A stretch of 64,000 nt of DNA, taken from contig VMHB01000001.1 in NCBI GenBank assembly GCA_007378985.1, forward strand, positions 64,252-128,251. The letters run 5' to 3'. Source of the DNA: Parcubacteria group bacterium Greene0714_7 (lineage in GTDB: Bacteria > Patescibacteriota > Minisyncoccia > Phycocordibacterales > Phycocordibacteraceae). A model generated the notes under the pieces. The model made no database searches, was not told the DNA's origin, and was given only the letters and a program-made list of their open reading frames with translations. How positions within the stretch are numbered: the stretch's first letter is position 1; every line of letters begins with the position of its first letter. Below, one piece after another: positions 2,706-50,863 of this stretch. The position numbers were made by a program, and so were the translations under genes.

Positions 2706-2998
2706 AGGGATTCGGTAACAGATAGTTTTACTTTGTAAGATTTCTTCAATTCTTTCGAGGGTTCGGTCACAAGTAAATTTCCTGACGGAAATTTCTCGCG
2801 ACCCTAGCTCGGCATTTTTGCCTTGTGAGGCGTAAACAAAAATATGCCTGCGCTTTTCGAATCCCTCACGTGAGCCAAATTGTTAGGGATTCGGTCACGG
2901 ATAATTTTAAAAAATAAAATTTCCGCGACCCCGACTCGCCGACAAGCGATCGCTTCGCTCGCCTTGTGTACCGCCTCCGTCTTTCGAATCCCTCACCG
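2706..2998. repeat. Tandem array of about 120-bp repeat units (starts near 2706, 2757, 2885), each beginning gagggattcggtcac and ending ctttcgaatccctcac, next to tRNA-Val
   Basis: Unit ends are inverted copies of each other and copy the T-loop of the adjacent tRNA-Val (gagggattcgaa). Inside each unit: a hairpin (aaatttcctgacggaaattt) and a conserved core ttctcgcgacccNagctcggcatttttgccttgtgaggc. Related copies lie at 9397-9480, 10140-10240 (inverted), 31870-31940 and 50690-50800. Confidence 0.6.
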
Positions 2999-3050
2999 CA
3001 TTACAAACAATAAGTGCCGAACGCGAAAGCGTTCGGCATCTTTTGTTTTG

Positions 3051-10053: not shown

Positions 10054-10088
10054 TGATTACAAAAAAGCCTGCAACGCAGGCACTTTTT

Positions 10089-10440
10089 GTTCATGACCCC
10101 AAGCACGAGAATAATTTCTCGTGCGTCCGGGAATCGAATGGCACAGGCATATTTTTGTTTGTGCCTCACAAGGCAAAAATGCCGAGCCGGGGTCGCGAGA
10201 AATTTCTGTCAGGAAATTTACTTGTGACCGGTTTCCCGGTGGGGTCACAAAGTCAAAAACATGCCGACTGCTCGGCATTTTTTACTTTGTGACAGCCGGA
10301 GCCATGTCGCTTGCGACGGGCGAGGCGGGGTCGAGCGCACTTAGTATTTTGTGAGCCTTCGGAGCAAAATACTTAGTGACGGGTGACCACAAAGAAAAAA
10401 CACGCTAGTGAGCCGTGATCGATTCCCGGTGGGGTTCGAA
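10089..10440. repeat. Composite non-coding region downstream of tRNA-Glu: inverted copies of the tRNA 3' end (10091-10102, 10125-10136), an inverted about 100-bp repeat unit (10140-10240), direct copies of the tRNA 3' end (10210-10228, 10412-10430) and a conserved hairpin element (10285-10395)
   Basis: The string cgattcccggtggggt of tRNA-Glu recurs twice downstream. 10190-10232 is the reverse complement of 2761-2800. 10293-10395 matches 32345-32450 almost base for base. Confidence 0.6.
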
Positions 10441-29673: not shown

Positions 29674-29744
29674 GAATTAGGGTATATAGTGTTTAGGCGA
29701 TGCCTCATTGGATCCGTAGGGATCATAAGAAAACAAAAAACAAT

Positions 29745-30110
29745 ATGAAAAAAATATTTGCACGAGCTCTCCCGTTTTCTCTGTCGTTAGCATTGCCTTT
29801 TGTTGTACTTGCATCTGGTTGCGATAGTGCAAGCGCTGGAGGTCTTTGTAATCCTCTTGGATATAATTCTCTGTGGGAATTTTTACAGCGAATGCTCCAG
29901 TTGATTACTCAAATTGGTTTTCCTGTGATTGTGCTTTTCATTGTATTCATAGGGTTTAAATTCATCACTGCCGAAGGCAAACCTGAAGAGATTGCAAAAG
30001 TTAGAAGTCTCTTTTTCTGGGCGATCGTTGGCTCTTTAGTGGTGCTTGGAGCTCAAGCGCTTGCACTTGCAATACAGGCAACTGTTAACGATATTCAGGC
30101 TGGCTTGTAA
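29745..30110 (+). CDS. T4SS-pilin-like (TrbC/VirB2-type) small membrane protein, paralog 1
   Basis: Signal peptide, Cys-containing stretch, then two hydrophobic helices separated by a short charged loop (TAEGKPEEIAKVRS). Confidence 0.5.
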   Translation: MKKIFARALPFSLSLALPFVVLASGCDSASAGGLCNPLGYNSLWEFLQRMLQLITQIGFPVIVLFIVFIGFKFITAEGKPEEIAKVRSLFFWAIVGSLVVLGAQALALAIQATVNDIQAGL

Positions 30111-30118
30111 AAATATTT

Positions 30119-30553
30119 ATGACACTGACATCGATTATTAACACCATGACGGATGTTGTGACGTTAGCGGTTCCGTGGGTTCTCGTATTTTTGATTTTTT
30201 ATTGGAATGCTTACAAAATTATTTTTGACGCCGATAACGCAGAAAAAAGAAAACAGGCACTCCCTCGTCTTATATGGAGTATTGTTGCGCTCGCTATAAT
30301 CTTTTCTTTAGGAGGAATCGTCAATATAATTAGCAACACACTTCTTGGCTCAAGTAGTTCAACATTTGCACCTTCTAGTTCTTCGTCTCAGTCGCCTGAA
30401 CTTTTAGGTGGATCAAGGGCTGGAACATTAGGTACGCCAGCACCAGGTACTTCTCCAACCACTCCACGCTCACCAATTAACCCAAATATAGACCCAAGAG
30501 GAGAAATACGAACCCTACCTTCTTCTGGAGCTAATCCAGTGCGGGATATTTAA
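30119..30553 (+). CDS. T4SS-pilin-like small membrane protein, paralog 2, with a Ser/Pro/Thr-rich C-terminal tail
   Basis: Two TM helices around a DADNAEKRKQ loop, same spacing as the neighbouring paralogs; low-complexity S/P/T tail. Confidence 0.45.
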   Translation: MTLTSIINTMTDVVTLAVPWVLVFLIFYWNAYKIIFDADNAEKRKQALPRLIWSIVALAIIFSLGGIVNIISNTLLGSSSSTFAPSSSSSQSPELLGGSRAGTLGTPAPGTSPTTPRSPINPNIDPRGEIRTLPSSGANPVRDI

Positions 30554-30571
30554 AAAATTATATATTTTCAT

Positions 30572-30925
30572 ATGAAAAAAATAATCGGAATGACTTTTAT
30601 TGGCGCAACGGCACTCGTACCAGTTTCAACATTTGCAGCTGCAAGTACCATTCAGGATGTGCTCCGTAACCTTAACCTTCCACTTCAGCTCGCAACAACG
30701 CTTGTAGTAATGCTCGCACTTCTCCTCTTCTTTTGGGGTTTAGCTATGTATGTTTTTGGCTCATCTAATGATGAAAAGCGGAAAAAGGGTATACCTATGA
30801 TGATTTGGGGCGTTGTTGCTCTATTCGTGATGCTCTCTATCTTCGGTATCATTAATATGCTTCAGGCTACCTTTGGGGTTGGTTCTGGAACCCTCCAAAT
30901 CCCAACCATTAGTAGAGGGCAATAG
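30572..30925 (+). CDS. T4SS-pilin-like small membrane protein, paralog 3
   Basis: Signal peptide (…FAAAS); TM1-FGSSNDEKRKKGI-TM2 core nearly identical to paralog 4. Confidence 0.55.
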   Translation: MKKIIGMTFIGATALVPVSTFAAASTIQDVLRNLNLPLQLATTLVVMLALLLFFWGLAMYVFGSSNDEKRKKGIPMMIWGVVALFVMLSIFGIINMLQATFGVGSGTLQIPTISRGQ

Positions 30926-31046
30926 GCTATTGTGGTTCTCCACATCCCGTTTATACATTTTCCTTTGAAACAGGGGGAATGATACAATTAAGGCTGACTT
31001 ATTATTCAGGAGATTTATCTCGTTATATTTAATTGTTCGTAATTAT

Positions 31047-31421
31047 ATGAAAGGATTTTTAAGAACTGGTATTGCCACTGTCGTCGCTCTTGCTCCATTT
31101 GCTGCATTTGCTGCAGGCGGTGTTGATAACGCACTTACAAAAATTGGTGCTTTGATTACACAAGCAACACCAATTGTCGTTGCTCTTGCTCTTCTTGCCT
31201 TCTTCTGGGGTTTGGTTACCTACATCTTCGGTTCTTCAAATGATGAAAAACGAAAGAAAGGTATCCACATAATGGTATGGGGCATTATCGCTCTCTTCGT
31301 CATGCTCTCTGTCTTCGGTATCATCAATGCTCTTCAGAGCACATTAGGTGTTGAAAATACAACGACAATTCAGATTCCACAGGTGACTCCAGGTACTAAT
31401 GGAGGAGGAACTGCTCGTTAG
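31047..31421 (+). CDS. T4SS-pilin-like small membrane protein, paralog 4
   Basis: Signal peptide (…FAAFAAGG); the same FGSSNDEKRKKGIHIMVWG core. Confidence 0.55.
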   Translation: MKGFLRTGIATVVALAPFAAFAAGGVDNALTKIGALITQATPIVVALALLAFFWGLVTYIFGSSNDEKRKKGIHIMVWGIIALFVMLSVFGIINALQSTLGVENTTTIQIPQVTPGTNGGGTAR

Positions 31422-31497
31422 GATTTTCCAAGTCTTGAATAACCACAAGAATTAAGAAGTTGTTTGGTTCATTTAAGTCTTTTGTATTGATTAGTTA

Positions 31498-31700
31498 TGG
31501 ATGTACTGTCTAAATTCATTGGTAAGATTGTTGAGTTGATACTCAACGGTATTCATTGCACATGCAGATAATCCTGAGGAAAGAAAAAAAGGAGAACGAA
31601 AGATGCTTTGGGGGATCATTGGATTCTTCATCATGGTATCTGTTATAGGCATCCTGACTGCGGTTACGGGAACCTTCGGGGTTAGTTTACCGAGGTAATT
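31498..31700 (+). pseudogene. Decayed fragments of a fifth pilin-like paralog
   Basis: A short N-terminal ORF (MDVLSKFIGKIVELILNGIHCTCR*) followed, out of frame, by EERKKGERKMLWGIIGFFIMVSVIGIL..., matching the loop and TM2 of the paralogs. Confidence 0.5.
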
Positions 31701-31724
31701 AATACAAAAAAAGAGATTAATAAA

Positions 31725-31755
31725 ACACTCCGCGAATAGCGGAGTGTTTTATATT
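31725..31755. terminator. Intrinsic terminator (aaaacactccgcgaatagcggagtgtttta)
   Basis: 9-bp stem with flanking A-tract and T-tract. Confidence 0.6.
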
Positions 31756-31789
31756 TGAAGTGTGTAGAGAGATGTAGGGTGACTTGGTC

Positions 31790-31986
31790 ACGAGTCACTA
31801 ACTATTTTGCTTCGCTCGCTCGCAAAATACTAAGTGCTCTCGAAGCCTCTCGGCACGATTTGCTAATCGCCCAGCTCGGCAATTTTGCCTTATGCTTCGC
31901 ATAAACAAAATTATGCCTCCGCCTTTCAAGTCCTCACGCACGTAAAGCAGTTTGCGTGCTTTCCGCCTACACTCGTAAACTCATTG
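31790..31986. repeat. Non-coding repeat modules downstream of tRNA-Leu(TAG): an inverted partial copy of the conserved hairpin element (31790-31870) and a repeat-unit core whose end copies the local T-arm (agctcggcaattttgcc...ccgcctttcaagtcctcacgc)
   Basis: 31874-31940 aligns with 2807-2877, except that the terminal T-loop mimic is ttcaagtcctc (Leu-TAG T-arm) instead of ttcgaatccctc (Val T-arm). Confidence 0.55.
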
Positions 31987-32068
31987 TGGGCGGAAGAGGA
32001 CTTGAACCTCCACCCCTTGCGGGACCAGCTCCTAAGGCTGGCGCGTCTGCCAATTTCGCCATCCGCCC
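31987..32068 (-). tRNA. tRNA-Leu (anticodon TAG)
   Basis: Reverse complement: acceptor GGGCGGA/TCCGCCC, anticodon stem-loop CCAGC-CTTAGGA-GCTGG, long variable arm, T-arm GGAGGTTCAAGTCCTCT. Confidence 0.75.
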
Positions 32069-32153
32069 AATGCTTGAAGAGTAGCATTAGACGCCTGCTA
32101 TTCAAAGATTCATGCTTTTAAAATGTACTTATTTCTGTTAGAGTTTCTCAATC

Positions 32154-32227
32154 TGCCCGAAAGCTATGCTTACGGGTGGAAATAAAAAAGAGAAGAAACA
32201 TTCGCCCGTAAGCATAGCTTTCGGGCG
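32154..32227. repeat. Perfect 21-22-bp inverted repeat (gcccgaaagctatgcttacggg ... cccgtaagcatagctttcgggc) with a 28-nt A-rich loop
   Basis: Read directly; no flanking T-tract, and it lies inside a gene-free region. A second 11-bp hairpin follows at 32239-32264. Confidence 0.5.
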
Positions 32228-32274
32228 CTTCGCTCCAAGATAGTGAAAACAAATTTTCACTATCCTTCTCGCTC

Positions 32275-32327
32275 GCGCCCGTAGCTCAGTTGGTAGAGCG
32301 ACTCCCTCTTAAGGAGACGGTCGCAGG
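32275..32327 (+). pseudogene. tRNA-Lys-like 5' fragment (acceptor, D-arm, anticodon arm CTT, 5' T-stem) with no matching 3' half
   Basis: GCGCCCG-TA-GCTCAGTTGGTAGAGC-G-ACTCC-CTCTTAA-GGAGA-CGGTC-GCAGG, followed at once by the conserved hairpin element. No TTCGAAT-CCTGC-CGGGCGC found downstream. Confidence 0.5.
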
Positions 32328-32334
32328 ATTTTCT

Positions 32335-32580
32335 TGTTTTGTGCGTGCCGGAGCCATGTCGCTTTGCGACGGCGAGGCGGGGTCGAGAGCACTTAGTATT
32401 TTCTGAGTCTTACGAGAATAATACTTAGTGAATCGTGACCACAAAAAATAAAAAAGCACTACGCAAGTAGTGTTTTTTGCTTGTGTGCGTGCCGGAACGA
32501 TGTCCTGAGTCTCGAAGGACCGTGAGGCGGGGCCAGCGACCGAGACGAGCGACGGCGAGTCGAGAGTCGTGGCCACAAAT
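32335..32580. ncRNA. Two tandem copies (one complete, one variant) of a conserved about 100-nt hairpin element (gccggagccatgtcgcttgcgacgg-cgaggcggggtcgag-gcacttagtatttt...aaaatacttagtga-gtgaccacaaa)
   Basis: 32345-32450 matches 10293-10395 with substitutions confined to the loop of the long cacttagtatttt/aaaatacttagtg stem. 32480-32570 shares the ends and has a different central hairpin. Calling it an RNA is inference. Confidence 0.4.
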
Positions 32581-32682
32581 TCTCCTTATTTGAGGAACTG
32601 CGAGCCGAGCGATTAGAGAATCGTGCCGAAGCCCTACCGAGCCCAGAGGGATCAATTATGGATGCTAGTATTTTAGTTACCT

Positions 32683-33216
32683 ATGGTCCTTCTTCATAAT
32701 TTCTGGTTCATTCAATTCCTTGGTGCGATAGCTCTCGTTTTTGTAGTGCTCGCATGGAATGCAAAAACTCGTAGAAATATACTCTTTTTACAATCTATCA
32801 ATTTAATTTTCTTTATTTTTCACTACGCACTTCTTTCTGCATATGCAGGTGCTGCAATGTGTTTAGTGGTTCTAGGGCGAAATAGTGTTTTTATTCAAGC
32901 AAATCAGAAAAAATGGGCAAAACATCCTGTCTGGTTTTACCTCTTCTCATTGATGTCAGTGGCAGTGCTTGTCGTTTTTTGGAAAGGATTGATTACTATT
33001 TTGCCTGTTGTAGGAGTTATTATCGGCACCTACGCTATCTCAAGAGATCATCCTAAAGATATTAGATTCTACATGCTCATTGCATGTGTCATTTGGATTC
33101 CGTACACCATTGTTGTTCAGTCATATTCAGGACTCTTGAGTCAGATAGTTGGCGCTGTAGCTATTCTTATGGGGATGTATCGACACGACCGAAAGAAAGA
33201 ACCCATCCCGTTATGA
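32683..33216 (+). CDS. YgjV-like inner membrane protein (5-6 TM helices)
   Basis: Hydrophobicity pattern and length. The family assignment is tentative. Confidence 0.4.
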   Translation: MVLLHNFWFIQFLGAIALVFVVLAWNAKTRRNILFLQSINLIFFIFHYALLSAYAGAAMCLVVLGRNSVFIQANQKKWAKHPVWFYLFSLMSVAVLVVFWKGLITILPVVGVIIGTYAISRDHPKDIRFYMLIACVIWIPYTIVVQSYSGLLSQIVGAVAILMGMYRHDRKKEPIPL

Positions 33217-33254: not shown

Positions 33255-33809
33255 TTAAAACTCATACACATACAGTGTGTGTTTGTGTCTGCCCGCAACA
33301 ACTACAGTTTCAATTGGTTCTTTTGTTTTGAAAGGGAAGTCACAGGAAATAACTCGGGTTCCTTTTTTTAATTCTGCTTCGAACTTTGGCAAAAGTTTTT
33401 CCACGACTTCAGGAAATAAATACATGTATATATGTGTTGCGTTGCTCAGTGGTACGCGTGAGAAGTTTTTGAAAAGAGTTTTTACATTTTTCAATGGTTT
33501 TCTCCAGAAACGAATTTGGGTGAGTGTGTAGGGAAGTGGGGCTTTTTCGACGCCTGTTGCAAACGCATCTGGATAGGCTGAACCAATGGTAGCAATAACA
33601 CGCCCGTCACCAGAGCCGAGATCGTAAAATTGATCGCCTGCCTTCATTGCCAGTAATCGCTTTACTTCATCAATTACATGCTGAGGTATTGGCACATAGG
33701 GTACTTTAGTTGTGACGATGCCGTAGCTCATCAACAGTAAAAAAAAGAAGCACACTAGCCAGATAAGTATTAGTAATACATAAAGGGCTAGAACAAGGAA
33801 AAGAGTCAT
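33255..33809 (-). CDS. Membrane-anchored class I SAM-dependent methyltransferase
   Basis: N-terminal TM helix, then motif I FYDLGSGDGRVI. The longer ORF (to 34070) would translate the tRNA trailer repeats, so the start was placed at MTLFLVLALYVL. Confidence 0.55.
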   Translation of the reverse strand: MTLFLVLALYVLLILIWLVCFFFLLLMSYGIVTTKVPYVPIPQHVIDEVKRLLAMKAGDQFYDLGSGDGRVIATIGSAYPDAFATGVEKAPLPYTLTQIRFWRKPLKNVKTLFKNFSRVPLSNATHIYMYLFPEVVEKLLPKFEAELKKGTRVISCDFPFKTKEPIETVVVAGRHKHTLYVYEF

Positions 33810-33939
33810 ATGTGCGAAGTAGTATATCGTATCTTTTTTGCCTGCACTGAGTGAGTAAATCGAGTCGAGGTGTGCTGGGGGAGGGACTCCACTCCGGTCG
33901 CTCGTTGACTCTCGCGCCTCCGTGCCGGCCCTCGCGGTT

Positions 33940-34076
33940 TTTGCCTTGTCTCTTGCAGACTCAAGACAAACAAAAACATCGCTCCGGACTTCGAGTCCCA
34001 CACGCAAGCGTCGCAGGGCGCTTGCTCCTGGGCACCATAAAATAAAGTCGCACGGATGCGCGACTAACATTTTTTA
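33940..34076. repeat. tRNA-Leu(TAA) trailer: an inverted copy of the T-arm (ggacttcgagtcccacac) and a 16-bp inverted repeat that pairs with the tRNA 3' end (cctgggcaccataaaa / ttttatggtgcccagg) enclosing a small hairpin
   Basis: Read directly. Confidence 0.55.
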
Positions 34077-34162: not shown

Positions 34163-34288
34163 GGTGTTACTTGATTATGATACAGGATTAAGGAATTAAG
34201 GGGAATTGCCCTCTCACGGTTTTTTGAAACAAAAAACATCGTTCCGGCTTTCGATTCCCGACGTAAAGCATGCAGATGCTTTACTCCA

Positions 34289-41907: not shown

Positions 41908-42125
41908 TGGGTTGGATTCGAACCGCGGGCCGCAACGACTGGGAAGGAGTGAAGGTCTCGAGCTCAGCAGAGCGAGAGGCGAATCCAACCCGAGGATCGC
42001 TAAAATTTCCGTCAGGAGATTTATCTGTGTCCGCACAATCGAAGAGCGACCATAGGTTTCGAGCGTAAGACACTTTGTCTCCCTTTGAGGGTCAAACGCG
42101 AGAGGCGAATCCAATCCGCCAACAC
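41908..42125. repeat. tRNA-Tyr trailer with three partial copies of its T-arm (ggttggattcgaacc; gaggcgaatccaacccgagg; gaggcgaatccaatccgcc)
   Basis: Read directly. Confidence 0.5.
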
Positions 42126-43225: not shown

Positions 43226-43466
43226 CAGTTTTGAAACGCAGTGAAAAACTGCGGTACCAAGAAAAGCACTTATGTGCTTTTCGACAAGGATTCGAAGACC
43301 CTGAATATATCGCACGGAGCCTGTCTTCAGGCGAGTACGATATGAAGGGTGTACAGCTCCTGTAAAGAGACTTTTCAGAAACTGCATTCGGACGAAACGA
43401 AAACTATGTTTTCGTTTCGCTTCTCTCTGGTTTCTGTAAGGAGAGAATCCTTGTGGGCCCGCAAAA
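43226..43466. repeat. tRNA-Trp trailer: two hairpins, an inverted T-arm copy (caaggattcgaagaccc, about 43286-43302) and a 19-nt direct repeat of the tRNA 3' end (aatccttgtgggcccgca, 43447-43464)
   Basis: Read directly. The direct repeat at about 220 bp resembles a tRNA-targeting att remnant, but there is no cargo gene between the copies. Confidence 0.55.
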
Positions 43467-46891: not shown

Positions 46892-47055
46892 ACTCCTCTC
46901 CCCGTGGAGGTCAAGATATGTTCCCTGTGGTTGTGGAATGGTCTCATATACAGGCCGAGAAGAGCTTTCAAAGGTATACCCCATGAGATACAGTTTTTTA
47001 TTATACCCATTGCCTAATGCAGGTAAGTTATCTCACGAGGTATACTCATTGTGTA

Positions 47056-47934
47056 ATGAGAAAGATACTGATACTCCTTCTCCCGATAGTATTTTTCATG
47101 CCACTCGTGGCATTTGCTGCAGTTCAGCAAGACCCTTCAGCACTCTTAAGTGGGAGTGGTGGGGGATTAGTTCCTCAGTGTGAGGGAGCAGAGTGTAGGG
47201 CGTGTGATCTTTCCGAACTTGCAAACAATGTCATTAACTTCGCTGTTGCCTTCTCTGTCATTGTTGCCACTCTCATGTTTGCTTATGCAGGTATTCTGTA
47301 TGTAACCGCAGCAAGTAAGCCAGACCAAGTAAAGAAAGCACACGGCGTGTTTGTGAATGTATTTGTCGGCTTATGTATTGTGCTTACCGCATGGCTTCTG
47401 GTTAATATTACTTTTTCGGTGTTGACGGGGAAAGGTATTAGTGTTTGGACAAAAATATCTTGCGTGGGGAATCCTGAGTCCGCGGCTTTCCCAGATGCAC
47501 CTGGTGCACAAGCCTCTCGTCCTCAAGTGACAGGTAGTGGGACTCCAGTTACCCCAACAAATAGTAATGATAATCTTGCGGGAGTTCATCCCGACCTTGT
47601 CCGACTCGTCAATGCAGCTCATGCTTGTTCCGCTATTCAGTTTCAGGTGACGAGCGGTTTTCGTCAGAGGTCTAGCACTGCTACAGATTCACGACATATT
47701 CAGGGTATGGCTGTCGACGCTCATCCTATTATTAGAAGCATAGTGAGCTATACAGGAGGTTCATGTGTACCTCCTAATGCAAACTACCGAGCAATAAATG
47801 ACGCATTTGCCTGTGGCAGTCGGCAGACCGGTATTCCTTATCAGTGGGGGGGTAGTAGTCCAACCTTCATGCAAAACAGGTGTTACGATTCGATGCATTT
47901 TCAGTTACCCCGCTCGGTCTACCCTAATGGTTAA
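47056..47934 (+). CDS. Fusion protein: N-terminal T4SS-pilin-like domain plus C-terminal M15 (VanY/D-Ala-D-Ala carboxypeptidase-like) zinc peptidase domain
   Basis: Signal peptide, Cys-rich LVPQCEGAECRACD, TM1-SKPDQVKKAHG-TM2 pilin architecture, then a Pro/Thr linker and an SxHxxGxAxD-type motif (DSRHIQGMAVDAHP). Confidence 0.5.
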   Translation: MRKILILLLPIVFFMPLVAFAAVQQDPSALLSGSGGGLVPQCEGAECRACDLSELANNVINFAVAFSVIVATLMFAYAGILYVTAASKPDQVKKAHGVFVNVFVGLCIVLTAWLLVNITFSVLTGKGISVWTKISCVGNPESAAFPDAPGAQASRPQVTGSGTPVTPTNSNDNLAGVHPDLVRLVNAAHACSAIQFQVTSGFRQRSSTATDSRHIQGMAVDAHPIIRSIVSYTGGSCVPPNANYRAINDAFACGSRQTGIPYQWGGSSPTFMQNRCYDSMHFQLPRSVYPNG

Positions 47935-50674: not shown

Positions 50675-50863
50675 TTGCAAGTGCCGGAGGAGGGACTCGG
50701 TCAGGCGTTCTCTGTTTGTCGTCACAAACAGAGCCGCACGACCCTAGCTCACCTGTTTTTTCTGCTGAAAAAACATGGTTCCGCTTTTCGAGTCCCAACG
50801 TAATGTACGCAGGTGCATTACTCCTCGCGCAAAAGAAAATCGCACACATGTGCGATTACTTTG
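50675..50863. repeat. tRNA-Leu(CAA) trailer: a direct copy of the tRNA 3' end (gtgccggaggagggactcg, 50680-50698) starting a repeat unit, and an inverted T-arm copy (gcttttcgagtcccaacg, 50783-50800)
   Basis: Read directly. The unit core ccgcacgaccctagctc matches the cgcgacccNagctc core of the 2706-2998 units. Confidence 0.55.

Follow-up and report, generated by a model that had tools for sequence, protein, structure and literature searches.

Probable TLR-type modules in the trailers of two divergent tRNA genes of a Patescibacterium

What are the recurring hairpins that crowd positions 31430-32682 of this DNA, and how are they connected with the tRNA genes among which they lie? The window, that is, the whole 64-kb stretch that was analysed, belongs to a Patescibacterium (Ca. 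Paceibacterota). An earlier note, made from the sequence letters, had seen in the region either a novel family of non-coding RNAs or a graveyard of tRNA-targeting elements. After comparison with related genomes, we lean towards reading it as an array of modules of the tRNA-linked repeat (TLR) type, placed in the 3′ trailers of a divergent pair of tRNA genes.

Genes, gene remnants and a solitary inverted repeat

What had been taken for several decayed pilin fragments is a single T4SS-pilin paralog (31497-31698, plus strand), broken by a 56-nt deletion after 31544. The paralog measures 85 aa in sister assemblies and is intact in the near-identical contig L001 (8709-8966, PF18895 match) and in L004, so that the deletion is private to the window. 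The region's apparent lack of a credible ORF is in part a consequence of this deletion. A 14-bp intrinsic-terminator hairpin at 31720-31752 terminates both the pilin operon and the tRNA-Leu/element unit on the minus strand.

Two tRNAs had been claimed for the region. One is present and intact, the tRNA-Leu(TAG) at 31986-32068 (minus strand); a second intact tRNA is not there. A promoter-like site facing tRNA-Leu(TAG), TTGAGA-18-TACATT (32122-32151, minus strand), is a consensus match only. Between the divergent tRNA-Leu and tRNA-Lys genes lies a perfect inverted repeat (32155-32226; arms 32155-32176 and 32205-32226) with an A-rich 28-nt loop and a folding z-score of -10.7. The perfect stem described before at 32154-32227 is thus real, as is its 28-nt loop, but it measures 22 bp rather than 21 bp. 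It stands outside the repeat family described below. L004 has a single, uncompensated mismatch in this repeat, and in L005 the right arm is mostly retained (1/22 mismatch) while the left arm has diverged without compensation.

The tRNA-Lys(CTT) is represented by its first 47 nt only (32275-32321, plus strand). At the same spot, L001 carries a complete tRNA-Lys(CTT) followed by its terminator, and the window is short by exactly 50 nt; the gene is also complete in L004. The deletion took the T-arm, the acceptor 3′ strand and half of the terminator, whose 3′ arm and T-run are left at 32322-32340 (plus strand). A 53-nt fragment including a 5′ T-stem had been proposed; only 47 nt of it are tRNA, and 'GCAGG' is no T-stem but the terminator's 3′ arm. 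It was correctly seen that the 3′ half is absent from the window, and ARAGORN finds no tRNA-Lys within it, the cloverleaf of the piece being incomplete. The apparent fusion of the fragment to the repeated element is an artefact of the 50-nt deletion, which is private to this sequence and says nothing of element biology. Judging by these alignments, the piece is an ordinary tRNA-Lys(CTT) gene minus 50 nt in this assembly. We rejected a split or permuted tRNA-Lys and an intron in the T-arm, since the window holds no 3′ half and the difference from the sister contig is a plain 50-nt deletion. The deletion junction gained no independent support from JGI metagenomes, a collection from which the species may be missing.

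Module architecture and linkage to tRNA genes

The hairpin element of about 100 nt to which the earlier note drew attention is only part of a larger module, namely its core. In tRNA sense, a module consists of an optional terminator, an antisense arm, core hairpins, a sense arm and usually another terminator. The antisense arm copies the upstream tRNA from the discriminator (73) back to T54, where it stops in 35/40 cases, and is usually split at the acceptor/T-stem junction by a 25-nt hairpin (present in 30/40 bipartite arms). The sense arm repeats the tRNA from inside the T-loop (around position 56) to position 74-76; its start falls within positions 53-61 in 55/55 cases and its end at 74-76 in 36/55. 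The core hairpins follow the pattern GCSGRRC-ATGT..., GAG, GGGGUCG-long hairpin-GUGACC; several core types exist. As the tRNA-derived arms pair, the module is closed by a helix that reproduces the acceptor/T-stem stack of the tRNA; in minimum-energy folds the sense copy is paired with the distal 5′ arm in 49/60 modules. Eight of the nine pairs of the 25-nt hairpin covary. Because MAFFT misaligned these hairpins, we tallied their pairs directly and found a perfect Watson-Crick palindrome (143/144 pairs, no G.U).

The copies noticed earlier were borne out. Those at 32341-32445 and 10293-10395 share 88% identity over 100 nt, the variant at 32485-32580 and the inverted copy at 31786-31845 are present too, and the covariance model matches all four at E ≤ 1.6e-6. 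Its distribution is wider than these four sites: related modules stand behind 9/9 window tRNAs and behind about 40% of 260 tRNAs in related genomes.

The full module of tRNA-Leu(TAG) occupies 31771-31969 on the minus strand. In tRNA sense it runs from the antisense acceptor (31961-31969) through a 24-nt hairpin (31937-31960) and the antisense T-stem/T-loop (31925-31936) to hairpin 1 (31878-31917), a small hairpin (31852-31872), the long hairpin (31786-31845) and a degenerate sense copy (31771-31785). In the conspecific L004, the tRNA-Leu(TAG) locus has a perfect sense copy (17/17), and a different module makes up its distal half.

Behind tRNA-Lys, all on the plus strand, the array opens with a trimmed module, Lys-1 (32341-32445; fold z = -3.0). 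A remnant of the antisense acceptor, GTGCGTGCCGG, is fused here to the start of the core and followed by the small hairpin and the long hairpin (32379-32440); the closing stem is TTTTGTG/CACAAAA. Direct reading of the sequence places an intrinsic-terminator-like hairpin with a T-run between the modules (32450-32478, plus strand). At that position the terminator listing gave a terminator-like site on the minus strand only. The second trimmed module (32485-32580) scores 36.4 bits with a fold z of only -0.6 and has a compensatory change at the base of the long hairpin (GGCC...GGCC). A partial third module with the small hairpin (32602-32645) closes with a sense copy of the 3′ end of tRNA-Lys that has degenerated (32628-32645), and the flank that follows is also found in L004. 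Among the copies of this region the sense repeat is degenerate (31771-31785 and 32628-32645) or trimmed to about 3 nt; the copies at 32341-32580 and 10293-10395 are trimmed derivatives that keep a few nt per arm.

Elsewhere in the window, tRNA-Glu is followed by two modules (10054-10440, plus strand), one full (about 10054-10247) and one trimmed (10293-10395), the latter succeeded by one more sense copy of the 3′ end of tRNA-Glu. Two more stand behind tRNA-Val(GAC) (2757-3049, minus strand), giving two copies each at Val and Glu and two plus the partial third at Lys. The module of tRNA-Leu(TAA) (33877-34076, minus strand) is overlapped by an over-extended ORF (33255-34070), and that of tRNA-Cys (34199-34288, minus strand) has an internal deletion, being complete in L005 and represented by two tandem modules in L004. 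The module or modules behind tRNA-Tyr (41908-42122, plus strand) lie where a 43-nt terminator of L001 is missing in the window. Perfect 17-nt sense copies mark the modules behind tRNA-Trp (43227-43462, plus strand) and tRNA-Leu(CAA) (50681-50862, minus strand).

The linkage to tRNA genes is close. Among 67 covariance-model matches, 61 follow a tRNA on the same strand at a distance of at most 450 nt, another two follow the truncated tRNA-Lys, and two are at contig ends; same-strand tRNA trailers hold 63/67 (94%). A 12-mer of the tRNA's own antisense T-arm occurs downstream of 72/276 tRNAs, with 2 upstream and 2.9 in mismatched-tRNA controls. Near-perfect sense copies (17/17 or 16/17) were found for 47 tRNAs, downstream at 100-301 nt only and never upstream, with later units of the L028 tandem array as the sole copies beyond 301 nt. 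tRNA-matched arms are known behind at least 23 isoacceptors. In metagenomes, 28/85 pattern matches have no adjoining tRNA.

Integrases that cross over in the T-loop classically leave a footprint of direct repeats of tRNA 3′ ends that begin there. The sense copies fit this footprint and could be old attL/attR sites, scars of decayed prophages or integrative elements in tRNA genes. We consider this very improbable and rejected prophage or ICE att scars on distance: sense copies lie 100-301 nt from the tRNA or the previous array unit, never kilobases. The modules are moreover uniform in size and modular in architecture, their cores are conserved, structured and covarying, and neither the antisense arm nor the fixed 25-nt hairpin is an att feature. 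Within the window, 9/9 tRNAs of a small genome are decorated, and integrase remnants and cargo are lacking. On the same grounds the proposed graveyard of tRNA-targeting elements, taken as decayed integrated elements, is not supported. A viral origin was also discarded, as core-pattern scans of IMG/VR viral contigs returned nothing, or chance matches in high-GC coding DNA. A MITE or IS-derived element, which would show terminal inverted repeats of constant sequence and a short target-site duplication, does not fit either, because the ends of one and the same core differ between Val, Glu and Cys.

A terminator separates tRNA and module in only 27/87 cases but follows the sense copy in 37/60, a layout that speaks for one transcription unit with the tRNA; about 30% of modules, on the other hand, sit behind a good terminator without a visible promoter of their own. 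The modules might be independent small-RNA genes with their own promoters, linked to tRNAs merely by position. Their covarying structure, the bracketing of many modules by terminators and the copies away from tRNAs would agree with this. We regard it as improbable, since between the upstream terminator and the module there is neither room nor match for a promoter, the arms copy the neighbouring tRNA and 94% of model matches lie in same-strand tRNA trailers.

Structured RNA or selfish DNA

That stems are kept while loops vary, as had been noticed, is confirmed by compensatory changes at 10/11 pairs in 66 sequences. In the core alignment 97% of cells are paired, and the observed values were reached by 0/500 shuffles. 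The conservation and covariation of the core hold between genomes so distant that IF-2 identity is about 45%. A G.U pair is retained by 63/66 sequences, and an asymmetry between the strands (55 G.T vs 19 A.C, p = 3e-5) favours the tRNA-sense strand, which is the strand that folds. As far as sequence can show, a structured ncRNA family is supported. Rfam recognises no family beyond tRNAs, including RtT, parts of group I/II introns, OMEGA/HEARO-type RNAs and tmRNA. The idea of a novel ncRNA family thus stands as regards covarying hairpins, conserved G.U, strand bias and missing Rfam match; its layout, by contrast, is already known from TLRs and RtT. Two functional guesses failed: the 7-nt loops of the long hairpin are too inconsistent among copies for anticodon-loop mimicry, and a C/D-box guide RNA, suggested by a CUGA motif in the second core type, lacks the C box.

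Compensatory co-variation between antisense and sense arms was not seen, although the way in which the arms had been picked out biases this test. Where the sense copy has decayed, the antisense arm tracks complementarity to the tRNA and not to the decayed copy (46 vs 2, a selection-biased test).

Among conspecific genomes the modules are gained, lost, tandemly amplified and mosaic. One and the same core can stand behind several tRNAs, each time with arms that match the tRNA concerned; tandem arrays comprise four units of 182 nt in L028 and three units of 131 nt in both L133 and L153, and L006 has an empty site. The tRNA tail and terminator can be swapped together between conspecifics, with CCA encoded in the window and not in L004. 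Rare copies are flanked on the left by tRNA positions 1-53 and on the right by 57-61, as if inserted into the T-loop.

On the whole we favour the view that the modules are TLR-type trailer units, probably co-transcribed with the tRNA, trimmed like tRNAs and spreading by recombination. The module ends would mimic the top half of a tRNA, so that tRNA end-processing enzymes might excise discrete RNAs; candidates are RNase P, RNase Z or exonucleases, and the CCA-adding enzyme. Repeated tRNA 3′ ends and conserved T-loop sequences could serve the exchange and multiplication of cores by recombination or gene conversion.

Several observations count against an RNA reading. A palindromic 25-nt hairpin without G.U fits a constraint at the DNA level equally well. 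The sharp T54 boundary and the rare T-loop-inserted copies resemble a site-specific DNA event. The outcome of the decayed-copy test, the modules behind terminators and the tRNA-independent metagenomic matches also weigh on this side.

A possible though less likely origin is a selfish DNA element, non-autonomous and directed at the T-loop of tRNA genes, with RNA folding incidental. Single-stranded, its arms and core would fold, after the fashion of integron attC sites or of CTXphi attP(+), to a hairpin whose stem copies the duplex 3′ part of the tRNA gene; a host or trans-acting recombinase would exchange strands at 53|54, and the element would bring a new tRNA 3′ end and terminator and push the old 3′ end downstream. 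The arrangement found, in which tRNA, sense copy and terminator are followed by antisense arm, core, another sense copy and flank, is the one predicted by such a single-strand exchange at a hairpin site. An element of this kind would also agree with the precise boundaries at T54 and within the T-loop, the joint replacement of tRNA tail and terminator, the rare copies between tRNA 1-53 and 57-61, the perfect palindrome, the tRNA independence of some copies, and the empty site and tandem arrays. Recombination between direct repeats explains empty sites and arrays equally well, however. No gene for an integrase or other recombinase, a transposase, an HUH protein or a reverse transcriptase is present in the 64-kb window, 1.2 Mb of sequence contain neither larger versions nor versions with cargo, and the viral contigs offered no candidate beyond chance matches. 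Moreover, an element fitted to one tRNA would disrupt any other into which it inserted, which leaves the matched arms behind at least 23 isoacceptors without explanation, and a conserved G.U pair and strand bias are more usual for RNA.

A bolder proposal, which we hold to be rather doubtful, is that the modules are genome-wide, tRNA-matched 'shadow' molecules, one or more per tRNA species, and represent either functional RNAs or a new class of mobile element. As RNAs, their acceptor/T-stem mimic might engage tRNA-specific enzymes, one conceivable role being that of a decoy or a regulator in tRNA processing, in charging or in the action of tRNA-targeting toxins. As mobile elements, they would insert into the T-loop and rebuild an inverted and a direct copy of the target's 3′ end. 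If this proposal were true, an ancient and widespread system would have left the E. coli TLRs as a relict, and a puzzle 45 years old could be solved by comparative genomics.

The Patescibacterial family is larger and more diverse than that of E. coli, in genomes pressed to lose DNA and with most tRNA genes decorated. It offers hundreds of independent examples of sharp T54/T-loop boundaries, 25-nt hairpins, covarying cores and gain, loss and exchange, a dataset that could decide between a processed mimic of the tRNA top half and selfish DNA using tRNA genes. The modules are also a hazard for annotation, where they cause broken assemblies, pseudo-tRNA calls and over-extended ORFs.

Comparison with TLRs and other known systems

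The modules share with integron attC sites and CTXphi attP(+) two inverted arms, a structured spacer, a strand-specific fold, arrays and the precedence of structure over sequence. Whereas those sites have R/L boxes or dif-like arms, here the arms are copies of tRNA 3′ ends that differ from tRNA to tRNA, without the conserved attC boxes RYYYAAC and GTTRRRY. Unlike integrons, the modules carry no cassette ORFs, and the window has no IntI-type integrase or tyrosine recombinase. Integrase att repeats and cis-mobilisable remnants likewise include a direct repeat of the tRNA gene from T-loop to 3′ end, whereas the modules are tiny and uniform, with an antisense arm and a conserved structured core and without integrase or cargo.

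The modules also invite comparison with tRNA-like processing signals, such as plant mitochondrial t-elements and mascRNA, and with mimics of the tRNA top half, such as the tRNA-like domain of tmRNA and bacterial YrlA. With its tRNA-identical 3′ strand, their acceptor/T-stem-like helix might attract RNase P, RNase Z or the CCA-adding enzyme. In contrast to these systems, the T-loop nucleotides of the modules are base-paired, so that no elbow forms, and the helix specifically matches the neighbouring tRNA.

The nearest parallel is offered by the TLRs of E. coli, reportedly described by Egan and Landy in 1978 and by Rudd in 1999. Known since 1978, they are still without accepted function or origin. 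They include the 178-bp repeats of tyrT with RtT RNA (Rfam RF00391) and rrA/rrB/rrF behind 5S rRNA (Stenum et al. 2021, PMC8144298). The same work describes the TLR hallmark and read-through transcription and states that the function is still unknown (PMC8144298). Co-transcription with the upstream gene and processing have been shown for some E. coli TLRs only. As a descriptive class, TLRs repeat the final 18-19 bp of the upstream gene and number one to five per locus, often in tandem. Like TLRs, the modules immediately follow a stable-RNA gene whose orientation they share, and their last ~18 nt repeat its 3′ end. Both occur in one to several copies per locus, some in tandem, with a period of 178 nt in E. 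coli and here of 182 and 131 nt; in both, some units are bracketed by terminators, and the ends are matched to the gene of each locus. The RtT consensus (RF00391) also closes by antisense/sense pairing of the tRNA 3′ end. Only 9 nt are paired there, whereas the antisense arm is here of full length (73 to 54), bipartite and furnished with the fixed 25-nt hairpin. The RtT model, which scored 133-137 bits on E. coli K-12, had no match in the window at the gathering score (45 bits), nor at E ≤ 5 in 31400-32700; similarity in sequence is likewise not detectable, and homology with the E. coli TLRs is thus unproven.

A full-text literature search found no description of such elements in CPR/Patescibacteria, and the family is apparently undescribed there. 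By analogy of architecture the modules are relatives of the TLRs, and their layout is not a new kind. They differ from the E. coli repeats in their core hairpins and in frequency, 22 TLRs at 10 loci of a 4.6-Mb genome compared with 9/9 tRNAs of the window, as well as in their reduced Patescibacterial host, their several core types and their rapid turnover within a species.

Module anatomy and tRNA linkage

When the 400 nt 3' of each window tRNA were inspected in tRNA orientation, the same type of module was present behind 9/9 tRNAs, and additionally behind tRNA-Lys. Each module starts with an antisense copy of the 3' part of its own tRNA. The conserved core that follows comprises a hairpin opened by GCSGRRC-ATGT, a GAG motif and GGGGTCG - long variable hairpin - GTGACC, and the module ends by repeating the tRNA 3' end in sense orientation, with an intrinsic terminator usually coming next. 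At least two further core types occur, one of which places GTACTG-stem-GTA-stem after a long AT-rich hairpin that carries a GAGCGAAGCGAA loop. The earlier note had pointed to a real phenomenon that is more general than described. Its repeat copies were recovered by inverted-repeat, identity and covariance-model searches, and its element of about 100 nt exists, not as the whole unit but as the core of trimmed modules, in which a few nt per arm are left and the folded closing stem is TTTGTG/CACAAA. The modules apparently represent an abundant and so far unreported family of tRNA-trailer modules in Patescibacteria, similar to the tRNA-linked repeats (TLRs) of E. coli.

The source of the window (44% G+C) is a Patescibacterium. 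The MAG 'Candidatus Paceibacterota bacterium Gw_Eff_bin_311' (L004) has the same IF-2 (100% identity), and relatives are annotated as Paceibacteria, Kaiserbacteria and similar. Housekeeping genes include gyrA, ftsZ/ftsA, clpB, infB, topA, relA/spoT and dprA, alongside a T4SS-pilin paralog cluster. Five small T4SS-pilin (PF18895) paralogs stand in tandem at 29700-31698, and a sixth pilin domain is fused to a peptidase M15-like domain at 47017-47934. An encoded CCA is absent from most window tRNA genes and present in Leu(TAA) and Cys; for tRNA-Tyr, a CCA end is read in the window only.

Our comparison set comprised 80 IF-2 loci from related genomes (1.2 Mb, 310 tRNAs). Sense copies (last 17 nt, at most 1 mismatch) are found behind 47 tRNAs, always 100–301 nt downstream and farther solely as later units of one tandem array; none occurs upstream or at kilobase distance in the 1.2 Mb. 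The antisense T-loop and T-stem 3' strand (at most 1 mismatch in 12) lie at most 130 nt downstream of 72/276 tRNAs, compared with 2 upstream and 2.9 expected using the sequences of other tRNAs. At least one arm accompanies 109/260 tRNAs, including 9/9 in the window and 6/6 in L004; some lineages whose IF-2 is more distant have no such tRNA.

From 20 copies of the long hairpin we built a covariance model, which matched 67 sites in 1.17 Mb. Of these, 61 lie at most 450 nt behind a same-strand tRNA and two more follow the truncated tRNA-Lys; a further two are at contig ends. The last 2, on the related contig L075, are genuinely independent of a tRNA. Scanning metagenomes for the trimmed-module pattern gave 106 stretches, and the 80 loci fetched contain 85 matches: 49/85 behind tRNAs (23 isoacceptor types), 8/85 at contig ends and 28/85 without a nearby tRNA or other Rfam RNA. 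Set beside these counts, the proposal that the modules are free-standing sRNA genes fits poorly, and we regard it as improbable. The tRNA-independent cores (L075 16790-16885 and 19130-19225; metagenome examples on L095, L103, L112 and L161) often directly follow a protein-coding gene plus hairpin, and several of them occur on contigs of 54–59% G+C, which may belong to other lineages. Terminator-like hairpins with a T-run are rarer between tRNA and module (27/87) than after the sense copy (37/60), a predicted layout that would place most modules within the tRNA transcription unit.

Strand-specific conserved folding and turnover

The antisense arm ends at the complement of T54 in 35/40 cases and is split exactly at the acceptor/T-stem junction in 30/40, by an insertion of 19–27 nt (mode 25). 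The sense arm starts inside the T-loop in 55/55 cases, most often at position 56, and its end falls at positions 74–76 in 36/55. The 25-nt insertion forms a hairpin of 9 bp with a 4-nt loop, in which eight pairs covary and the ninth, the closing G-C, never varies. In minimum-energy folds, the sense copy pairs with the distal antisense arm in 49/60 modules; the predicted fold is a three-way junction, where the 25-nt hairpin meets an acceptor-like helix and a T-stem-like helix extending into the core.

The structure-preserving substitutions that the earlier note had proposed to look for are present in the long hairpin, where 10/11 pairs show changes on both sides (157 cells) and 0/500 shuffles reach the observed values. 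The paired fraction of 97% of cells is inflated, as the alignment was fitted to the model, whereas the number of pair types is not. A G.U pair is retained in 63/66 sequences. Read on the tRNA-sense strand, single mismatches in Watson-Crick stems are G.T in 55 cases versus A.C in 19 (p = 3e-5), and G.G and T.T far exceed C.C and A.A, so the tRNA-sense strand is the one that folds. In the 25-nt hairpin, 143/144 pairs are Watson-Crick with no G.U, and this perfect pairing speaks against a purely RNA-level view.

The modules turn over between close relatives. Behind tRNA-Leu(TAA), the site is empty in L006, a contig of a related genome, and the module of the window differs from that of conspecific L004; the window gene encodes CCA and the L004 gene does not, so the tRNA tail was exchanged together with the module. 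Behind tRNA-Cys, L004 has two modules in tandem and L005 a single one; the one module of the window carries an internal deletion. The tRNA-Leu(TAG) modules of the window and L004 have the proximal half in common, with the distal hairpin and sense copy swapped at a GCCGAGC motif. Tandem arrays comprise four units with a 182-nt period in L028 and three with a 131-nt period in L133 and L153. A near-identical core is found behind window tRNA-Val, window tRNA-Glu and L004 tRNA-Cys, and its arms fit the local tRNA each time. A 271-aa ORF at 33255-34070 (minus), an annotated gene in public assemblies, spans the tRNA-Leu(TAA) module; in L006, without the module, its homolog starts at an ATG equivalent to window 33809, and to judge from the sequence the true product is probably a DOT1-like methyltransferase of about 184 aa.

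A rare mirror-image arrangement is located upstream of tRNA-Gln and tRNA-Glu (L105 520-1020, L106 6880-7340, L160 1770-2210, L162 1560-1940). It runs (leader + tRNA positions 1-53) - hairpin - core - GTGACC - GATTC - loop - GAATCGAACC - (leader + intact tRNA) and includes an antisense T-loop piece; it looks as if the core were seated within the T-loop of a duplicated gene. Other upstream tandem duplications comprise the tRNA leader and 5' part only: of tRNA-Tyr with a break in the anticodon loop (L062 3440-3790), of the first 26 nt of tRNA-Leu (L081 14187-14470) and of the first 5 nt of tRNA-Lys (L005 13300-13392).

The best reading of the anatomy, tRNA linkage, strand-specific conserved folding, placement in tRNA transcription units and turnover shown here is, on balance, that of TLR-type modules which are co-transcribed with the tRNA, trimmed like tRNAs and spread by recombination or gene conversion. 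The modules would be transcribed along with their tRNA or, like E. coli rrB, through read-through of a terminator. Their closing helix would imitate the acceptor/T-stem stack and 3' end of that tRNA, and because it copies them, RNase P, RNase Z or exonucleases and the CCA-adding enzyme may trim modules as they do tRNAs. Direct repeats of 17–21 nt would allow precise loss and tandem gain, and cores could be converted between loci via the conserved T-loop and core motifs while the arms remain locus-specific.

The main rival is a selfish DNA element, in which a folded hairpin site would undergo strand exchange at 53|54. Under this model the order of parts would be as seen, and tRNA tail and terminator would be replaced jointly; however, we identified no enzyme for it, and the matching of the arms to each tRNA is left unexplained. 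We consider such an element possible but doubtful. No integrase, transposase or reverse transcriptase is encoded in the 64-kb window, and an origin of the modules as decayed prophage att scars, a poor fit, is very improbable.

The tRNA-Lys locus

L001, a near-identical 292-kb contig of another assembly, equals the window over 20 kb with no substitutions, the sole differences being three window deletions. The first, 56 nt after 31544 (31544/31545), interrupts a pilin paralog of 85 aa, for which L001 and L004 have the intact gene; the supposed decayed pilin-paralog fragments are this one broken paralog. The second, 50 nt after 32321 (32321/32322), is inside tRNA-Lys(CTT)/terminator and removes the T-arm, acceptor 3' strand and left terminator arm of an otherwise normal tRNA-Lys(CTT), where Rfam gives a weak tRNA match (32275-32325). 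The third, 43 nt after 41905 (41905/41906), takes out the terminator behind tRNA-Tyr. Comparison with L001 corrects the previously described 53-nt 5' fragment with a 5' T-stem to 47 nt of tRNA plus one half of the terminator. It is fused to the element because the 50-nt deletion joined them, and thus reflects a deletion artefact or variant instead of element biology. This junction has no match in JGI metagenomes, where the species may be absent. Short inverted repeats bound the deleted 56-nt and 43-nt segments (ACACC...GGTGT; CGGTATAAAA...TTTTATTACCG), which suggests hairpin-mediated deletion in vivo or an artefact of assembly or sequencing.

tRNA-Leu(TAG) is located at 31986-32068 on the minus strand (ARAGORN, Rfam). 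The copy at 31786-31845, formerly called inverted, exists but has normal orientation relative to its own tRNA, because it is part of the full minus-strand tRNA-Leu(TAG) module. At 32341-32645, two trimmed modules and a partial third form an array, which closes with a degenerate repeat of the tRNA-Lys 3' end; the flank beyond is also present in L004. In contig L003 (ENA ERZ27284378 k139_615334, 1-560), ftsH, a partial tRNA and tRNA-Ile(TAT) with its terminator replace tRNA-Lys upstream, and the downstream trimmed modules and YgjV gene are as in the window. The breakpoint is the module start, reflecting either rearrangement via the repeat or chimeric assembly.

Between the divergent tRNA-Leu(TAG) and tRNA-Lys genes, adjoining a promoter-like site for tRNA-Leu, the palindrome at 32155-32226 is real and perfect, with an A-rich 28-nt loop, but its stem measures 22 bp (32155-32176 / 32205-32226) and not 21 bp. 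L004 carries one uncompensated mismatch; in L005 the left arm has diverged and the right arm is largely retained (1 mismatch/22), with no compensation. The window holds no second copy. The palindrome is species-specific, and a conserved RNA is without support.

Relation to known elements

No Rfam family matches the modules, and when tested for membership of RF00391 (RtT) the window modules did not fall within the family. Our literature searches brought up no description of comparable elements from CPR bacteria. The loop motif GAGCGAAGCGA(A) recurs in apical loops of Paceibacteria long hairpins (e.g. window 31808-31822; L036, L043, L051) and also in E. coli tyrT repeat units (L085, 1286000-1288200); common to both groups, it is too short as proof of homology. 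It contains GCGAAGC, a DNA mini-hairpin of unusual stability.

On E. coli K-12, the Rfam RtT model finds four units at 133–137 bits. The closing pairs of its consensus, 'GGGAAGGAU' with 'AUCCUUCCC', are the antisense and sense copies of the tRNA-Tyr 3' end, and the architecture of RtT is that of the window modules. E. coli possesses 22 TLRs at ten loci, in one to five copies each, the 3' end of which is identical over 18–19 bp with the 3' end of the upstream tRNA/rRNA gene (PMC8144298). Among them, rrA/B/F have a terminator on either side, arise by read-through transcription and are processed; the others have no assigned function, and an early rtT claim was retracted (PMC8144298). The defining features of the E. 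coli TLRs are common to the window modules. TLR-like modules are of a kind already known yet unexplained, and their Patescibacteria family is apparently new.
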